DNA from: Candidatus Nanoarchaeia archaeon
GTDB taxonomy: Archaea > Thermoproteota > Bathyarchaeia > Bathyarchaeales > Bathycorpusculaceae
NCBI GenBank assembly: GCA_035506455.1
Contig: DATJPJ010000080.1
Coordinates: forward strand, 1 to 44,188
Direction: 5' to 3'
DNA: 44,188 nt
Shown here one piece after another: positions 10,204 through 26,701 of the stretch. Made by a program: the position numbers and the translations under genes. Within the stretch, counting starts at the first letter, position 1; the number at the start of each line of letters is the position of its first letter. The notes under the pieces were generated by a model. The model saw only the letters and a program-made list of their open reading frames with translations. It was not told the origin of the DNA and did no database searches.

Positions 10204-10707
10204 TTAAGCCGTCTTCATGAACTTTGATTTGGGTGAGCCGCAGACGGGGCAGACGTCCGGAGCGGAGCCTTCCACAGTGTTTCCACATGTCTGGCAGACG
10301 TAGTAGTCGACCTTTACAATGTCTTTCTTGTTTTTCATTGCGTCTATAGCTTTCTGGTATAGTCCAGCGTGCACTTTCTCGACTTTGTTTGCGACGTCAA
10401 AGCTCCATGCAGCTTGTTTGTTGCCTTCTTTCTTAGCTACGTCGAGGAATTCAGGGTACATTTTCATAAACTCGAACGATTCGCCGCCAAACGCGGTGTT
10501 CAGGTTTTCCATTGTAGATTTGATTTCGCCTAAGGTTCTTAGATGGTTTAAGGCGTGGACGGTTTCGGCTTCTGCTGCTGCTCGAAAGAGCTTGGCAGCT
10601 TGTGTGAAGCCTTCTTCGTCGGCTTTCATTGCGAAAGCTAAGTATCGTCTGTTTGCTTGAGATTCTCCTGCGAATGCAGCTTTTAGGTTTTCATCGGTCT
10701 TGGTCAT
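10204..10707 (-). CDS. rbr: rubrerythrin
   Basis: 167 aa. It has a ferritin-like diiron domain (ENLKAAFAGESQANRRY, EAETVHA) and a C-terminal rubredoxin-like CQTC...CPVC. AGGAGA lies 9 nt upstream of the ATG. Confidence 0.9.
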   Translation of the reverse strand: MTKTDENLKAAFAGESQANRRYLAFAMKADEEGFTQAAKLFRAAAEAETVHALNHLRTLGEIKSTMENLNTAFGGESFEFMKMYPEFLDVAKKEGNKQAAWSFDVANKVEKVHAGLYQKAIDAMKNKKDIVKVDYYVCQTCGNTVEGSAPDVCPVCGSPKSKFMKTA

Positions 10708-10845
10708 ATAAAATTCTCCTGAAAAAGATTAACTTCGAAGTAAGTTATAAGTTATGCTTAAAATTTTGGGGGCTCACATTGAGGATACAGCAAAGGTATA
10801 TTAGGTTTAGTTTGCTTGTGAAAACATTGGTTTTTGGTGAGTAAA

Positions 10846-11487
10846 ATGGAGCATCTTACGATTAGTAAAAGCAAAACTGAAACTATAACTTCTTTTAGTC
10901 TTCCCAAGTTGCCTTATGACTACAAGGCTCTTGCGCCCTTCTTGTCTGAGGAACAGCTCAAGCTACATCACGATAAGCATCATTTGGGATACGTAAACGG
11001 TGCGAATGCTATCTTTGAAAAGTTGGACAAAGCCCGGAAAGAAAACATGGAAATCGACGCCAAAGCGACCTTCAAAGAGCTTTCGTTCCACATTGGCGGC
11101 CATATGTTGCATTCTGCGTTTTGGGATTGCATGGCACCTCCAGGAAAAGGTGGGGGTAAACCGAGTGGAGCCATTGCTGATGCAATTAACAAGGAGTTCG
11201 GAAGCTTTGATCGTTTCAAGATGGAGTTCTCTAAAACTGCTAACAGCGTTGAAGGCTCAGGTTGGGCAGTATTAGCAATGCAGGAATGTATTTCTAGGCC
11301 GCTGATTATGCAGGTTGAGAAACATAATGTAAACGTCTTTCCGGGTTTTCGCATTCTAATGGATTTGGACGTCTGGGAACACGCATATTATGTTGATTAC
11401 AAGAATGACCGCGCCAAGTTCGTTGAAGGGTTCTGGACTGTGGTCAACTGGGATTACGTCAATAAAGTTGCAACTATGATAAAGTAA
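10846..11487 (+). CDS. sod: Fe/Mn superoxide dismutase
   Basis: LPKLPYDYKALAPFLSEEQLKLHHDKHH and DVWEHAYY motifs are present. The track start at 10834 is a TTG. The ATG at 10846 has GGTGA 6 nt upstream. Confidence 0.9.
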   Translation: MEHLTISKSKTETITSFSLPKLPYDYKALAPFLSEEQLKLHHDKHHLGYVNGANAIFEKLDKARKENMEIDAKATFKELSFHIGGHMLHSAFWDCMAPPGKGGGKPSGAIADAINKEFGSFDRFKMEFSKTANSVEGSGWAVLAMQECISRPLIMQVEKHNVNVFPGFRILMDLDVWEHAYYVDYKNDRAKFVEGFWTVVNWDYVNKVATMIK

Positions 11488-16376: not shown

Positions 16377-16694
16377 CTAAGGCGGCGGAGTAATTTTTAT
16401 GGCCCCCGTTGGGCATTGTGTTTCGCATGCAAGACATTGGATGCAGTCGGGTTCACGTGCCGGGTCAGAACGTTTGTCTCCGCTGGGTGTTTGACCCCAG
16501 TCATAGAGAGAAACTGGGCAGACGCTGATGCATACGCCGTCTCCGACGCAGATGTCCCAGTCGACGGCTGAGTAGGTTCCGTGGATGCCCAGTTTGCCGG
16601 GTTCGTTTGCGCCCCAGACTTTGTGGCCGTTGTGTTCGCTTGTAACTTTTCGTTTGGTTTGAAAATCAGGGTCAATTGGCAAAAAATTCACCAT
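16377..16694 (-). CDS. zinc-containing dicluster ferredoxin (Sulfolobus Zfx-like)
   Basis: The N-terminal His-rich extension SEHNGHKVWG...LGIHGT is followed by DICVGDGVCISVCP and CIQCLACETQCP. This resembles the Sulfolobus zinc ferredoxin as I recall it. Confidence 0.85.
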   Translation of the reverse strand: MVNFLPIDPDFQTKRKVTSEHNGHKVWGANEPGKLGIHGTYSAVDWDICVGDGVCISVCPVSLYDWGQTPSGDKRSDPAREPDCIQCLACETQCPTGAIKITPPP

Positions 16695-17567: not shown

Positions 17568-17649
17568 CTTCTGATGCTTTCTTTTCTTTCTTCACGTAAT
17601 ACTCTTTCTTTTTCTTTTCTTCTTCTGCCTTCTTTTTAGCTGCAGCCAT
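17554..17649 (-). CDS. candidate 31-aa lysine-rich micro-protein (MAAAKKKAEEEKKKKEYYVKKEKKASEVKKK)
   Basis: Hand-translated. GGTGAT lies 4 nt upstream of the ATG at 17649. It overlaps the priS 3' end by 14 nt. It is below the ORF-track size cut-off and is low-complexity, so it could be chance. Confidence 0.25.
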   Translation of the reverse strand: MAAAKKKAEEEKKKKEYYVKKEKKASEVKKK

Positions 17650-17740
17650 AAAATCACCACTAGCACTATGAAAGGTGGAAAATAAAAGAGTTTTGTGGCT
17701 CTCCTTTTTGCACAGGCCCGCTTTTTTTTGAAAAGTTTAT

Positions 17741-19153
17741 TTGGTTCCAAAACCAAACCTAATTGTTGAGGCTAATTTTGTGGAACGTTTTGACGTACTT
17801 GTAATAGGCTCGGGCAGTGGCATGTTAATTGCCAGTGTTGCAGTGGAAAGCGGTCTTCGAACCGCCGTCGTTGATTTTGGACCTATGGGCGGGACTTGTT
17901 CTAATCGTGGATGTATCCCTTCTAAAATGCTCATTTATCCCTCTGATGTTGCAACGCTTGTTCACGGAGCAGGAAAGCTGGGGGTTAACGCGCAAGTTAA
18001 CTCGGTTGACTTTGGTAACATTATGATGCGAATGCACCATTTGGTTAATGAAGACAGTGGCAACCAAGCCGCAGCGGTAGAAGCGACGCCGGGAATGAAG
18101 TGGTTTAAAACCGTTGGCGAATTCGTCGATGATTATACTCTAAAATTAGGCAACGAAACAATCACGGCGGAACGCATTTTCATAGTTTCAGGTTCGAGGG
18201 TGAAGATCCCCAATCTCAAAGGCTTAAGTTCAGTGCCTTATCTTACGAGCGACACGGTTTTAGAATTACAGGCACCGCCTAAAAGCCTCATTATATTGGG
18301 CGGAGGCTACGTTGGCGTAGAGTATGCGCATTTCTTTTCAGGCATTGGCACAAAAACTACTCTGATACAGCGACCGGTAACCCTTCTTAAAAATGAAGAG
18401 CCTGAAGTCAGTGACCTTCTCAAAATCGAACTGCAAAAGCGCCTTGATCTGTTCACGGGTTATGAAGCAGAAGAAGTAAAACAAGAAGGAAGCGAGATAA
18501 TTGTCATCGCTAAAAACTTGGCAGATGGCAGTCAAAAGGAATTTCGTGCGGAGGCACTGATGATTGCTGTGGGAAGACAGTCTAATTCTGATCTTCTCAA
18601 GCCCGAGCGAACAGGAGTCAAACTGGACGAGAACGGCTACATAATGGTCAATAATTTTCTTGAAACGGGTAAGAAGAATATTTGGGCCTTCGGCGACGCC
18701 ATTGGCAGGTACATGTTTAAGCATGTTGCTAACTACGAAGCTGGTATCGCTTGGCATAATTCAGTTCATGATCACAAAGCAGAAGTGGATTATTCTTCAG
18801 TGCCGCATGCTGTATTTACTGATCCCCAGGTTGCATCCGTCGGGCTAAAGGAAGCAGAGGCGAAGCAGCAAGGACACAAAATCTTGGTTGGTAAAGCATT
18901 TTACAAGGATACTGCAATGGGCGCCGCCATGGGTTTTCCAGAAGGCTTTGTTAAAGTCATTGTGGAAAATAGCACAGGCAAAATTTTGGGAGCCCACATC
19001 ATCGGTCCGGAGGCTTCAATTTTGATTCAGGAAATAATAAACGCCATGAACACCGAGGACAAAAGCTACGAACCCATCATCAGAAGCATGCATATCCATC
19101 CCGCTTTATCAGAAGTAGTCCAGAATGCCTTTGAATATCTTAGGCCTGGCTGA
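17741..19153 (+). CDS. class I pyridine nucleotide-disulfide oxidoreductase (dihydrolipoamide dehydrogenase/glutathione reductase-like)
   Basis: It has a GSGSG FAD fold, the redox-active GGTCSNRGCIPSK, a second Rossmann fold GGGYVGVE and a C-terminal HIHPALSE dyad. The 17741 start is a TTG. GTG 17780 would give the more typical MERFDVLVIGSG start. Confidence 0.85.
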   Translation: MVPKPNLIVEANFVERFDVLVIGSGSGMLIASVAVESGLRTAVVDFGPMGGTCSNRGCIPSKMLIYPSDVATLVHGAGKLGVNAQVNSVDFGNIMMRMHHLVNEDSGNQAAAVEATPGMKWFKTVGEFVDDYTLKLGNETITAERIFIVSGSRVKIPNLKGLSSVPYLTSDTVLELQAPPKSLIILGGGYVGVEYAHFFSGIGTKTTLIQRPVTLLKNEEPEVSDLLKIELQKRLDLFTGYEAEEVKQEGSEIIVIAKNLADGSQKEFRAEALMIAVGRQSNSDLLKPERTGVKLDENGYIMVNNFLETGKKNIWAFGDAIGRYMFKHVANYEAGIAWHNSVHDHKAEVDYSSVPHAVFTDPQVASVGLKEAEAKQQGHKILVGKAFYKDTAMGAAMGFPEGFVKVIVENSTGKILGAHIIGPEASILIQEIINAMNTEDKSYEPIIRSMHIHPALSEVVQNAFEYLRPG

Positions 19154-19224
19154 AATGGTAGCTAATTCAGCTAAAAAGTTATATGCTCCAATAGTCAACA
19201 GTTTCTAGCAGAGCTGATTTTGTT

Positions 19225-19509
19225 ATGAACATTTCTAAAGTCTCAGGCAAAAACTCTAAGCACCAGGTTCTCGTTTACGCGCTTAGCACATGCGTTTGGT
19301 GCAAAATGACTAAGCAGTACTTGAAAGATAACGAAGTCGAATTTGAATTCGTCGATGTTGACCTTAGCACAGAGGCAGACAGAGACAAGATCCGTAAACA
19401 TATTCAAGATTTGGGCGGTGCCCTTAGCTATCCCACTATTATCGTGGACAGCAAAAAGGTCATCACGGGTTTCCGCAAAGACCTTCTCAAGAAGGAGTTG
19501 GAATTGTGA
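19225..19509 (+). CDS. glutaredoxin/NrdH-like small redoxin (CVWC)
   Basis: 94 aa with VLVYALSTCVWCKMTKQYL and YPTIIVD, a thioredoxin-fold pattern. The stop overlaps the next gene's start (GTGA). Confidence 0.8.
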   Translation: MNISKVSGKNSKHQVLVYALSTCVWCKMTKQYLKDNEVEFEFVDVDLSTEADRDKIRKHIQDLGGALSYPTIIVDSKKVITGFRKDLLKKELEL

Positions 19510-20063
19510 CCGGCACGATAGAAGATTTCCGCAAGCGCGCCGAAGCGGATGCTAAAACTAACGGTTGCTACTTGATTCCCGATGCTGACCTTCTTCAGTC
19601 TTTTCTTGATGGGCTCAAAACCAACGAGGAACGCTATGGCTATCCCTCTTGTCCATGCCGCCTTGCCTCTGGCGTCTTCGAATTGGACAGAGACATTATC
19701 TGTCCTTGTGACTACCGTGACCCAGATGTGGCCCAATATGGGGCTTGTTACTGTCGTCTGTATGTTAACAAAGAAGTTTCTGAAGGCAAAAAGGAACTCC
19801 CTATAGTTCCCGAACGCAGACCAATGGACAAGCAAGCAAGAGCTTTCAGTGCCGCGAGTGCACCAAAAGAAGCCAGAACCTCTGCAAAAGCCCCCTTGGA
19901 GGAAGAAAAAGAAGAAATGGTCAAAATAGGACCCAAAATGTGGTACTGCAAACAATGCGGCTACGTCGTCTTCAGGGAAGACCCACCTTACGTGTGTCCA
20001 ATCTGCAAAGCAAAACGAGAATTCTTTGCTGAAATAAAAACAAAAGTGCAGTTTTCCGGTTAG
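19506..20063 (+). CDS. ferredoxin:thioredoxin reductase catalytic-subunit homolog fused to C-terminal rubredoxin (FDR-like)
   Basis: The CPC...CPC...CYC cysteine pattern of FTR-B (SCPCRL, ICPCDY, ACYCRL) is followed by an E/K linker and the rubredoxin knuckles CKQC...CPIC. The GTG start overlaps the upstream stop. Confidence 0.8.
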   Translation: MTGTIEDFRKRAEADAKTNGCYLIPDADLLQSFLDGLKTNEERYGYPSCPCRLASGVFELDRDIICPCDYRDPDVAQYGACYCRLYVNKEVSEGKKELPIVPERRPMDKQARAFSAASAPKEARTSAKAPLEEEKEEMVKIGPKMWYCKQCGYVVFREDPPYVCPICKAKREFFAEIKTKVQFSG

Positions 20064-20076
20064 TCCGGATTTCTGC

Positions 20077-20226
20077 TTATTGTGTAATTTCTACCTCTAT
20101 TTTCTTCCAATCTTCTTTTATTCCTTTGAGGGTAGATATTCCACCGACAATAGTTCCCTGCACAAATTTTTCGACAAACTCGTTAAGAGGGATATCTTTT
20201 CCATCAACCTTCAGTTTCATTCCCAT
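20077..20226 (-). CDS. candidate 49-aa protein (MGMKLKVDGKDIPLNEFVEKFVQGTIVGGISTLKGIKEDWKKIEVEITQ)
   Basis: Hand-translated. AGGTGA lies 6 nt upstream of the ATG at 20226. The composition is globular rather than low-complexity. It converges on the FDR gene with a 13-nt gap and is below the track cut-off. Confidence 0.5.
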   Translation of the reverse strand: MGMKLKVDGKDIPLNEFVEKFVQGTIVGGISTLKGIKEDWKKIEVEITQ

Positions 20227-20733
20227 TCTGTTCACCTAAAAGAAAGTCAAGCGTTTCTGACTAAAAGTTTTGCGGCGAAAAACTATTCAAGCGAACGCAG
20301 TTGGAGGGCGATAGAATGCGAAGCGACCCCTGAACCAGCAAGAGGAGATGATTGCTTTTCTTTGGGCGTCTGCTTCAGATTGAGACTAATGTTCATCATG
20401 TTAGTCTTCTTTTCTCATTCTACGCCAAACTCCAATTCGGGTGCTCATGTTAAGGCACTTCTCGTGTCTCAAGTTTTTTGTGTGCGTTTGTTTTTTAATC
20501 ACCACCGTTTGTCTCTTATACTGGATGTATGTCGGGTAAAATTTAAATTATTTTGAGATTTGTTCATAAATATTATTAAAAATTATGCAATTATCCAAGC
20601 ATTAAAAGGCACAACGATATTGGTCAGGCTGTCAAGCGTCCGTCTTGAGCATTAGTGCAACTTAAAATATTGGTGGATCTCATAAATCAAATGTTGCAGT
20701 CTGAGTGATCTTATCAAATAGGGAGGAAAGTAA

Positions 20734-21393
20734 TTGAAAGTACCTAAAATCTACCTTGAACCGAAAGAACGCGCAGCCGAAATAATCAATATCTTAGAAA
20801 AACAGTTTCCTGACGCAAAAATTGCTTTAGATTACTCTACTCCCCTTGAACTGCTTGTGGCTACTATCTTGTCTGCGCAAAGCACGGATGTTACGATTAA
20901 TCAAATTACTAAAAAATTATTTAAGAAATACACAAAACCTGAAGATTACGCAAATGCCGAAATAACAGAGCTTGAACAGGACATTAAATCGTCAGGATTC
21001 TATCATAACAAAGCTAAGAACATCCAAAAGGCTGCGCAGCTACTCGTCGAAAAATTCGGTGGCAAAGTCCCCGAGACAATGGAGGATCTCATGGAGCTGC
21101 CTGGCGTAGCTAGAAAAACTGCAAATATTGTCATTTATGGGGCGTATGGAAAAGTCGAAGGTGTTGCGGTCGATACTCATGTACGCCGCCTCTCGCAGAG
21201 GCTGGGACTTACAAAGAATGAAGACCCTGAAAAGATCGAGCAAGACCTTATGCGATTGGTTCCTAAAGAAAAGTGGATGCACTTGGCGAATTTGCTGATT
21301 TTCCACGGAAGACAAGTCTGCTTCGCCAAGAAGCCGAATTGTGCTGGTTGCGAGCTGAATAAGATTTGCCCTCGCGCATTTGCCTTTGAGTAG
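20734..21393 (+). CDS. nth: endonuclease III (DNA glycosylase/AP lyase)
   Basis: It has the HhH-GPD motifs LVATILSAQSTD and LPGVARKTANIV and the C-terminal cluster CFAKKPNCAGCELNKIC. The TTG start is preceded by GGGAGG. Confidence 0.9.
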   Translation: MKVPKIYLEPKERAAEIINILEKQFPDAKIALDYSTPLELLVATILSAQSTDVTINQITKKLFKKYTKPEDYANAEITELEQDIKSSGFYHNKAKNIQKAAQLLVEKFGGKVPETMEDLMELPGVARKTANIVIYGAYGKVEGVAVDTHVRRLSQRLGLTKNEDPEKIEQDLMRLVPKEKWMHLANLLIFHGRQVCFAKKPNCAGCELNKICPRAFAFE

Positions 21394-21427: not shown

Positions 21428-21943
21428 ATGGTTAAGGTTTTTGACATGTCCTCCGTAAAGCCTTTGCCTCACACTCCAAGAGTTGGAGAAGCAGCGCCCG
21501 ACTTCATACTTCCAGATACGAACTTGAAAATGTGCGAACTTCGATCTTTTCAAGGGGAGAAGGTGGTTCTTGCATTTTTTGTCGGTGCCTTCACCAATGT
21601 TTGTACAAAGGAAATGTGCTCTTTTCGCGACAGTATGTATAGGCTCATTGACCTAAAGTCTCAAGTAATAGGAATAAGCGTTAACGATCCTTACTCAAAC
21701 AAAGCATTCGCTGAGAAAAACGAACTCACTTTCCCGATCCTTAGTGATGTCAACCGCGAAGTCGTGAAAGCTTACAATCTTGAATCTCCAGACTTTGCAG
21801 GTATCAAAGGTTACACAGTTTCCAAACGAAGCATATTTGTTCTTGACCGAAAAGGTATCGTCCGCTACACTTGGATAACTGAGGATCCGGCGGTCGAGCC
21901 TCCCTACGATAAGATAATTCAGGTTCTTTCTGAAATTAATTAG
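21428..21943 (+). CDS. bcp: peroxiredoxin, Bcp/AhpC-TSA family
   Basis: GEAAPDFILPD and FFVGAFTNVCTKEMCSF, with the peroxidatic Cys in VCT. Confidence 0.85.
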   Translation: MVKVFDMSSVKPLPHTPRVGEAAPDFILPDTNLKMCELRSFQGEKVVLAFFVGAFTNVCTKEMCSFRDSMYRLIDLKSQVIGISVNDPYSNKAFAEKNELTFPILSDVNREVVKAYNLESPDFAGIKGYTVSKRSIFVLDRKGIVRYTWITEDPAVEPPYDKIIQVLSEIN

Positions 21944-26146: not shown

Positions 26147-26701
26147 CTACTTTATCCATTTAATTATGTTTGGCTTCTTTCTTTTGTCAGCCCCTGCTTT
26201 TCCTTTTGGGTGACCCAGAATGAACGGCACTAGCATATCGCAGTTTTCGGGGACGCCAACTTTCTTCAGAATATCTGGCTTGCTTGTTAATCGGCTAATC
26301 CAACCCATATAGCAAGTTCCAAGCCCCATGCCATGAGCTTTCAGGAACATGTTCTCTGCGGCTAAGACGCTGTCAAGCAAATTAAGACTGCCCCATTGTT
26401 GGTCTTTTTCTGCACAGATCAAGATGAGGACAGGTGCGTTATAGCAGATGATGTCTTCAGACGTAGCAAATCGCTTGGCAAGATCCGGAGACATCTGTTG
26501 CACTAAAACCTTGGTTTCGTCGGAGACAAAATTAATGAGTTTCTTGTCCTCGATTATTACAAATTTAAGAGGTTCACGATGCATGGCTGTGGGCGCCCAA
26601 ATTCCCGCCTCAAGAATAGCCTCTATTTGTTCCTTAGAAACTGATTCGGGGGTGTATGATCTTACGCTTCTTCTTTCTTTGATGCATGCGTCAAGTTCCA
26701 T
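26147..26701 (-). CDS. nitroreductase family protein
   Basis: CIKERRSVRSYT, then AGIWAPTAMHREP, a typical nitroreductase N-terminus. Confidence 0.85.
   Translation of the reverse strand: MELDACIKERRSVRSYTPESVSKEQIEAILEAGIWAPTAMHREPLKFVIIEDKKLINFVSDETKVLVQQMSPDLAKRFATSEDIICYNAPVLILICAEKDQQWGSLNLLDSVLAAENMFLKAHGMGLGTCYMGWISRLTSKPDILKKVGVPENCDMLVPFILGHPKGKAGADKRKKPNIIKWIK

Follow-up and report, generated by a model that had tools for sequence, protein, structure and literature searches.

The window considered here is the whole 44,188-nucleotide (nt) contig DATJPJ010000080.1 (contig C80, positions 1 to 44,188, assembly GCA_035506455.1) of a 2.12-Mb metagenome-assembled genome (MAG) of the Bathyarchaeia, which comprises 271 contigs and is 71% complete with 3% contamination. 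On its forward strand it carries a row of three genes that code for a class-I flavoprotein disulfide reductase (henceforth the flavoenzyme), a glutaredoxin-like redoxin (Grx) and a ferredoxin:disulfide reductase (FDR) (Table 1). These identities had been proposed in a first-pass annotation of the DNA and were recovered by Pfam searches for all three genes; the active-site motifs, gene spacings and cysteine patterns described there likewise hold in the sequence. DNA matching positions 17600-20300 was also found in metagenome DNA runs from wetland and peat; the runs listed for this stretch include no RNA run.

The longest open reading frame (ORF) of the flavoenzyme gene (17741-19153, +) begins at TTG 17741 and contains GGTCSNRGCIPSK and the motif HIHPALSE, and its product matches the Pfam domains Pyr_redox_2 and Pyr_redox_dim. 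GTG 17780 is the more probable start of translation, yielding 457 amino acids (aa), since homologous proteins begin at the corresponding methionine and the GTG is preceded at 9 nt by a GAGG. The Grx gene starts 71 nt past the flavoenzyme stop codon, and the FDR gene begins at the GTG of a GTGA that overlaps the stop codon of Grx.

Grx matches the Pfam Glutaredoxin model (PF00462; 48.2 bits, E 1.3e-12), and among solved structures it is closest to the Grx-like proteins 5cax and 3nzn of Methanosarcina, in which the STCVWCK active site is identical. Across 39 sequences the STC.WC signature with its two cysteines (C23 and C26), the cis-proline P70 and G82 are invariant. Its best NCBIfam match is the YruB family (TIGR02196), for which it lies under the cut-off (53.2 against 88.55), as it also does for NrdH (TIGR02194, 46.4 against 85.75). 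The CVWC-type Grx of M. acetivorans is methanoredoxin, and FDR is listed among the archaeal disulfide relays (PMC7278568). In PMC9176816, with reference to Wei et al. 2015, NrdD3-type class III ribonucleotide reductase (RNR) is listed with a glutaredoxin-like NrdH as its reductant.

The FDR combines the catalytic-subunit domain of ferredoxin:thioredoxin reductase (FTR) (FeThRed_B, PF02943, 71.8 bits) with a rubredoxin domain (RUBY_RBDX, PF21349, 38.9 bits). Its best relative among solved structures is 4tpu (E 3.6e-42 over residues 9-175), which we take to be the structure that Kumar et al. 2015 reported for the FDR of M. acetivorans. The cysteines C49-P-C51, C66-P-C68 and C80-Y-C82 (CPC..CPC..CYC) align with those of 4tpu, as does the CKQC..CPIC of the rubredoxin domain with CKVC..CPIC. 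The first-pass annotation had drawn attention to the tyrosine that stands in the last CxC in place of the plant histidine. This residue is indeed present, but it is not special to the window gene: the plant and cyanobacterial chains 7bzk and 2pvg have CHC, whereas 4tpu has the same CYC, which makes the tyrosine a family hallmark of FDRs. Work by Prakash and colleagues in 2018 reportedly found methanoredoxin and Trx5 to be reduced by FDR, with a role for the tyrosine of the active site.

The Grx and FDR genes overlap or abut in every lineage that was read, even where the flavoenzyme gene lies elsewhere. Further, both window proteins match 7pwe, the solved structure of a natural fusion between a Grx-like and an FTR catalytic domain, which provides a Rosetta-stone argument that Grx and FDR act together; our literature search turned up no paper on this structure. 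Some close homologs of the FDR are named 'ferredoxin:glutaredoxin reductase' by NCBI. Judged by its sequence, the Grx-FDR pair is the known methanoredoxin/NrdH-type glutaredoxin-FDR module. Hence the dedicated redoxin beside the FDR, which had been regarded as a notable feature of the window, turns out to be an arrangement already on record and even captured as a fusion.

The relatives of the flavoenzyme among solved structures are led by the mycothione reductases (Mtrs; 294 bits, about 45% identity), followed by MerA (229 bits) and the best E3, or dihydrolipoyl dehydrogenase (217 bits). In the alignment with Mtr, its R211 and K217 stand opposite R199 and R205, such that the Mtr motif RxxxxxR appears here as RxxxxxK; the two Mtr residues have been equated with R218 and R224 of glutathione reductase, which bind the 2'-phosphate of NADPH (PMC10910545). 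R211, which occupies the end of the second strand of the nucleotide-binding fold in place of the acidic residue of NAD+-type enzymes, is invariant in 39 family sequences, and the second basic position varies between K, R and P. The same 39 sequences also share C53, C58, H453 and E458 without exception; however, the CxxxxC motif and the His-Glu dyad are common to the entire class-I family and are without discriminating value for E3. C53 and C58 are the sole cysteines of the protein, which ends in ...AFEYLRPG, and no second redox-active Cys/Sec pair of the kind seen in high-molecular-weight thioredoxin reductases (TrxRs) or MerA is present at its C-terminus. With nothing beyond the CxxxxC cysteines, the flavoenzyme therefore lacks the second redox center of those enzymes.

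Profile models do not agree on the flavoenzyme. It passes the 'dihydrolipoyl dehydrogenase' model NF004947 (scores below) but reaches only 331 with the lipoamide_DH model TIGR01350, under the cut-off of 408.8, and it likewise fails both Mtr equivalog models (NF005884, 414 against 501; TIGR03452, 389.5 against 635.65). Automatic naming of the nearest protein clusters is inconsistent ('dihydrolipoamide dehydrogenase' in some cases, 'mycothione reductase' in others) and was given no weight. Archaeal DLD-annotated proteins, whose function is left open, have been reported to form a cluster with Mtrs, a relationship that the authors call unexplained (PMC10910545). The residue and model profile of the window protein appears to fit this 'archaeal DLD-annotated' group, the sister of the mycothione reductases.

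An E3 would be expected to have partners, and the first-pass annotation had observed that 2-oxoacid dehydrogenase genes are missing from the window. This extends well beyond it: a search for E2 (PF00198) came up empty not only in the window but also across the MAG and 10 additional genomes of its genus (9 of them at least 90% complete; n=11 with the MAG). GcvT and GcvP of the glycine cleavage system were not found in the MAG, given its 71% completeness. No Gcv, E1 or E2 gene lies beside the flavoenzyme gene in about 100 loci that were read, including 25 loci of other phyla (Asgard, Thermoplasmatota, Dehalococcoidia, Aminicenantes and others); among the 87 flanking proteins of the latter no family occurs in more than 2 loci. 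A classical E3 role in a 2-oxoacid dehydrogenase complex is thus not supported, though the flavoenzyme may carry out lipoamide-type chemistry.

To place the trio in its phyletic context, we surveyed 301 Bathyarchaeia genomes, counting flavoenzymes at E <= 1e-60, and recovered FDR in 125 and the flavoenzyme in 172. In the family of the window (f1) both genes occur in 30 genomes, FDR alone in 4, the flavoenzyme alone in 0 and neither in 14. The order flavoenzyme>Grx>FDR recurs in about 45 species loci of clade A, which unites flavoenzymes at least 60% identical to the window protein (tree support 99). The conserved block of f1 and clade A reads ferredoxin (-), PriS>flavoenzyme>Grx>FDR, a small ORF (orf52) (-) and Nth>Bcp. 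Among the clade-A exceptions, three loci (L053, L055, L077) are without Grx-FDR within 7 kb, and in a fourth (L045) the pair is shifted 4 kb upstream. Linkage is also seen in other orders, with the arrangements FDR>flavoenzyme (L030), Grx>FDR>flavoenzyme (L031) and a divergent one (L032), and in a Thermoplasmatales locus (L104) that reads flavoenzyme> <FDR<Grx<nitroreductase. The flavoenzyme is accordingly linked to FDR in three separate places of the tree, namely clade A, the clade of L030, L031 and L032, and L104, with differing gene orders. In a maximum-likelihood tree built from 84 flavoenzymes, this linkage takes a minimum of 3 changes, 2 of them forced by starred branches, against a mean of 11.3 when shuffled. 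Synteny of the trio in relatives, which the first-pass annotation had named as a check, is thus borne out in Bathyarchaeia and, across two flavoenzyme clades, in other orders.

A different arrangement is seen in family f19, where five species loci display the row flavoenzyme>AhpC/TSA peroxiredoxin>nitroreductase and Grx-FDR lies elsewhere. In two genomes of this family Grx-FDR divergently adjoins a gene for an M19-family dipeptidase (L033, 4914-6140, -; L035, 7383-8609, +). The M19 family includes Cys-Gly and cystinyl-bis-glycine dipeptidases.

The DNA upstream of the genes points to their transcription in two units. At the distance listed for the window motifs in Table 1, TTGAAA(A/G)GTTTATTTG precedes the flavoenzyme gene, and CTAAA(A/C)AGTTATAT precedes the ATG of Grx, in most of the 27 relatives' loci that were compared. 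We infer that both motifs act as promoters; as each unit has a conserved motif of its own, the flavoenzyme gene and the Grx-FDR pair are probably separate transcription units.

Table 1. Features of the trio and its surroundings; positions refer to the window unless another contig is named
Feature	Position	Strand	Basis or remark
Promoter-like motif TTGAAAAGTTTATTTGG (BRE/TATA type), ~40 nt before flavoenzyme start	17728..17744	+	Conserved in relatives
Class-I flavoprotein disulfide reductase, NADPH type, annotated 'dihydrolipoyl dehydrogenase'	17780..19153	+	Pfam, NCBIfam, structure matches
Promoter-like motif CTAAAAAGTTATAT (BRE/TATA-like), ~40 nt before Grx start	19171..19184	+	Conserved in relatives
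Glutaredoxin-like redoxin (Grx), methanoredoxin/NrdH type, 94 aa, active site STCVWCK	19225..19509	+	Pfam Glutaredoxin
Ferredoxin:disulfide reductase (FDR), FTR catalytic-subunit domain + C-terminal rubredoxin domain	19506..20063	+	Pfam, 4tpu match
Ferredoxin, two Fe-S cluster motifs, zinc-ferredoxin-like N-terminal extension	16377..16694	-	Pfam Fer4 families
Small ORF, ~50 aa, convergent on FDR gene	20077..20235	-	tblastn conservation; no Pfam match
Endonuclease III (Nth), repair of oxidized bases	20734..21393	+	Pfam HhH-GPD; conserved downstream in clade-A loci
Bcp/PrxQ-type peroxiredoxin	21428..21943	+	Pfam AhpC-TSA 5.1e-34; NCBIfam thiol peroxidase matches under cut-offs
Rubrerythrin	10204-10707	-	Pfam
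Fe/Mn superoxide dismutase, divergent	10834-11487	+	Pfam
Nitroreductase	26147-26701	-	Pfam
GcvH and Nox/CoADR-like flavoprotein in the MAG	G000 contig C258, L003 ~1011-1424, 1387-2784	+, +	Also in L118-L129

Several of the flanking genes are potentially relevant to thiol redox. The ferredoxin, which lies upstream of PriS in most clade-A loci and has a partial match to the NCBIfam zinc-containing ferredoxin (84 bits, under the cut-off), is a possible electron donor for FDR. Downstream, Bcp follows Nth in many clade-A loci, and it is a plausible client of Grx. Rubrerythrin, superoxide dismutase, Nth, Bcp and the nitroreductase all fall within about 16 kb and form an oxidative-stress neighborhood around the trio. 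The small ORF that converges on the FDR gene is positioned identically in nearly all clade-A loci, with 49-82% identity in tblastn comparisons, and is absent beside FDR in other Bathyarchaeia families. Elsewhere in the genome we found NrdR-NrdD-NrdG on another contig, a class II RNR and a low-molecular-weight TrxR-like gene.

Besides that of the window, the MAG contains one more PriS>flavoenzyme>Grx>FDR row (G000 contig C134, L005 1-2770), 62-68% identical to the first. A paralogous duplication was considered and rejected, since its flavoenzyme is the sister of one from another genus (L024, support 100); by its affinities the contig most likely belongs to a related Bathyarchaeon and was mis-binned. 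In a comparable vein, three loci with the typical Bathyarchaeia block are filed as Candidatus Acidoferrum, Candidatus Sulfotelmatobacter and Methanocella sp. (L057, L062 and L077), probably through errors of binning or labeling.

These observations lead us to an interpretation to which we assign about an even chance: the locus would consist of two neighboring, separately promoted thiol-redox units in an oxidative-stress neighborhood, with the flavoenzyme being an NADPH-dependent reductase of a small disulfide and not an E3. In the Grx-FDR unit, reduced ferredoxin would donate electrons to the rubredoxin domain of FDR, from where they would reach the [4Fe-4S]/disulfide center formed by CPC..CPC..CYC. 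By homology to the tested Methanosarcina enzymes, this center would then reduce the CVWC disulfide of the Grx encoded upstream, which in turn could serve presumptive clients such as Bcp and the class III RNR encoded elsewhere. In the other unit, the flavoenzyme would most likely use NADPH to reduce a small disulfide, either that of some low-molecular-weight thiol or that of a swinging lipoyl arm. A small disulfide is the likeliest substrate because the protein has a single buried CxxxxC pair and no second redox center. The reduced small thiol might in turn support the same Grx and the peroxiredoxin defense, a connection suggested by the linkage of the genes. From this linkage and the class of the enzyme, we infer that the flavoenzyme feeds the same antioxidant thiol network.

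It is tempting to go further and propose that the 'archaeal DLD-annotated' sister group of Mtr is the reductase of an undiscovered low-molecular-weight thiol that Bathyarchaeia would share with further anaerobes of sediments, both archaeal and bacterial (Asgard, Thermoplasmatota, Dehalococcoidia), with the CVWC protein as the glutaredoxin of this thiol and FDR as a ferredoxin-driven back-up, but we regard this bolder version as doubtful. Any reading that invokes a small thiol is weakened by the want of a candidate. Mycothiol is not known in archaea (PMC7278568). Of the enzymes of coenzyme M synthesis, neither ComA (PF02679) nor ComE (TIGR03846, over its cut-off) was found in the 11 genus genomes, with the cysteate route left out of the search; coenzyme M was therefore set aside as an unlikely small thiol, and a coenzyme M-dependent methanoredoxin activity is also unlikely.

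The first-pass annotation preferred to see the flavoenzyme as an NADPH:glutaredoxin reductase that acts directly on the CVWC redoxin, in which case NADPH and ferredoxin would converge on it with no small thiol in between. We judge this very unlikely. It draws on gene adjacency and co-occurrence, yet the two redox cysteines of the flavoenzyme are a buried CxxxxC pair, which makes direct reduction of a redoxin the least likely variant. High-molecular-weight thioredoxin reductases reach protein disulfides by way of a C-terminal second redox center, and the window protein has none; moreover, the genome possesses the TrxR-like gene mentioned above. A predicted complex of the flavoenzyme dimer (two copies of residues 15-468) with Grx scored 0.00, a value obtained without controls that was not counted either way. 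The low-molecular-weight thiol that the same annotation had offered as its weaker alternative fits better, given the two cysteines, the closeness to Mtr and the NADPH-type site. A further alternative, which appears unlikely to us, is that the flavoenzyme acts as an NADPH-linked lipoyl-protein reductase or dehydrogenase on lipoyl-GcvH, either as an L-protein or in a relay of the Lpd-lipoyl protein-AhpD-AhpC type that leads to Grx or the peroxiredoxin. It counts for this alternative, and against a small-thiol reductase, that the flavoenzyme passes the PRK-derived 'dihydrolipoyl dehydrogenase' model NF004947 (PRK06292.2-5; 611.9 against a cut-off of 592), which is exceeded in just 1 of 14 control genomes, and that GcvH is present in the MAG. 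Within the family, GcvH occurs in 58 of 61 genomes and GcvT in 37, implying a role of the lipoyl protein beyond glycine cleavage; a Grx-like protein of Methanobacterium is reduced by dihydrolipoate and not by glutathione, thioredoxin, sulfide or coenzyme M (PMC7278568). Judging by what is established for E3 enzymes, a swinging lipoyl arm could also reach the buried CxxxxC. Yet the lipoyl protein seems to have a conserved partner of its own: in the MAG, and likewise in 12 of 12 further genomes of the family, GcvH is directly followed, often with an overlap, by a gene for a 465-aa single-Cys Nox/CoADR-like flavoprotein. This pair is also found in genomes without GcvT and in genomes without the trio flavoenzyme, which suggests a dedicated couple of lipoyl-GcvH and flavoprotein that is independent of glycine cleavage. 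Nor does the presence of the trio flavoenzyme follow that of GcvT: among the 18 family genomes in which both were scored, 6 have both, 4 the flavoenzyme alone, 3 GcvT alone and 5 neither, and in G008, G280 and G298 (93-100% complete) GcvT is present and the flavoenzyme was not found. The failed TIGR01350 cut-off, the Arg/Lys nucleotide site as opposed to the Glu of NAD+-linked E3, and the lack of Gcv, E1 or E2 neighbors speak in the same direction.

It is also conceivable, though on the whole improbable, that the adjacency is historical, with the flavoenzyme engaged in another reaction (on persulfide or polysulfide, a quinone, a metal or another oxidant) and held in a frozen block beside Grx-FDR. 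Several observations favor this and correspondingly weigh against a functional tie between the two units. Much of the synteny within the window's family may be plain inheritance, because the conserved block includes the functionally unrelated primase gene PriS. Besides having separate promoter-like motifs, the flavoenzyme and Grx genes are parted in some relatives by opposite-strand genes for a PQQ-type propeller or an RHH protein, and by up to 3.5 kb of sequence. Outside clade A the flavoenzyme and FDR genes are mostly unlinked, separated on complete contigs by tens to hundreds of kb. In family f30, 32 of 43 genomes carry the flavoenzyme and 0 of 43 carry FDR, and the neighbors of the flavoenzyme there and in other phyla are unrelated housekeeping genes. 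Consequently, the tight coupling that had been claimed for all three genes stands for Grx and FDR, but not for the flavoenzyme. Further, misnamed relatives have proven to act on other substrates, such as the haloarchaeal 'MerA', which is a bis-gamma-glutamylcystine reductase (PMC7278568). Nevertheless, a frozen block does not readily explain why linkage to Grx-FDR recurs in three parts of the tree with differing gene orders, why the f19 flavoenzyme precedes a peroxiredoxin, again a thiol-dependent antioxidant partner, or why no f1 genome has the flavoenzyme without FDR.

The interpretation as two thiol-redox units can be further placed by comparison with known systems. The FDR of Methanosarcina (4tpu) and its Grx-like partners, methanoredoxin and the NrdH-like redoxin of the M. 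barkeri class III RNR operon, share with the window pair the FTR catalytic-rubredoxin build, the pattern CPC..CPC..CYC and the adjacent CVWC redoxin. Unlike these, the window pair lies outside any RNR operon, with NrdR-NrdD-NrdG on a different contig, belongs to a genus in which coenzyme M synthesis genes were not found, and adjoins a class-I flavoenzyme. The plant-type FTR has a catalytic histidine in CHC and a separate variable subunit, whereas the window FDR has tyrosine and is a single chain fused to rubredoxin, although no search for a variable-subunit gene was made. The actinobacterial system of mycothione reductase, mycothiol and mycoredoxin-1 resembles the locus in its NADPH-binding basic residues, CxxxxC, His-Glu dyad and nearby Grx-type redoxin and thiol peroxidases; the window flavoenzyme differs in failing the Mtr equivalog cut-offs and in that the Gly-rich alpha3 pocket helix is not conserved. 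With dihydrolipoyl dehydrogenase (E3 or L-protein) it has in common the fold, CxxxxC, the dyad and the NF004947 match, but it is set apart by the TIGR01350 result and the NADPH-type Arg/Lys, by the genus in which no E2 was found and by a GcvH that is otherwise partnered. Finally, YruB, the redoxin encoded in the rubredoxin operon of Clostridium pasteurianum, with its flavin thioredoxin reductase, as well as the plant NTR/FTR systems, embody the same idea of pyridine-nucleotide/flavin and ferredoxin routes to small CxxC redoxins. These employ low-molecular-weight TrxR-type flavoenzymes or a heterodimeric FTR, as against a flavoenzyme of the glutathione reductase class and a single-chain FDR in the window.

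All three genes of the trio belong to known families, and the Grx-FDR module has been characterized before. The novelty lies in a linkage, documented here and recurrent in Bathyarchaeia, between the 'archaeal DLD' sister group of Mtr and either Grx-FDR or a peroxiredoxin; our literature search found no paper on it. This linkage gives a concrete and testable context to the Mtr-sister group that was singled out by a 2024 study (PMC10910545). It also cautions that the annotation 'dihydrolipoyl dehydrogenase' in these genomes is poor evidence for 2-oxoacid dehydrogenase or glycine-cleavage metabolism. Bathyarchaeia are abundant, uncultivated archaea of sediments and wetlands, and the locus bears on the means by which they maintain reduced thiols and withstand oxygen. 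The Grx-FDR pair, as far as its sequence can tell, suggests that they use a Methanosarcina-type, ferredoxin-driven route.

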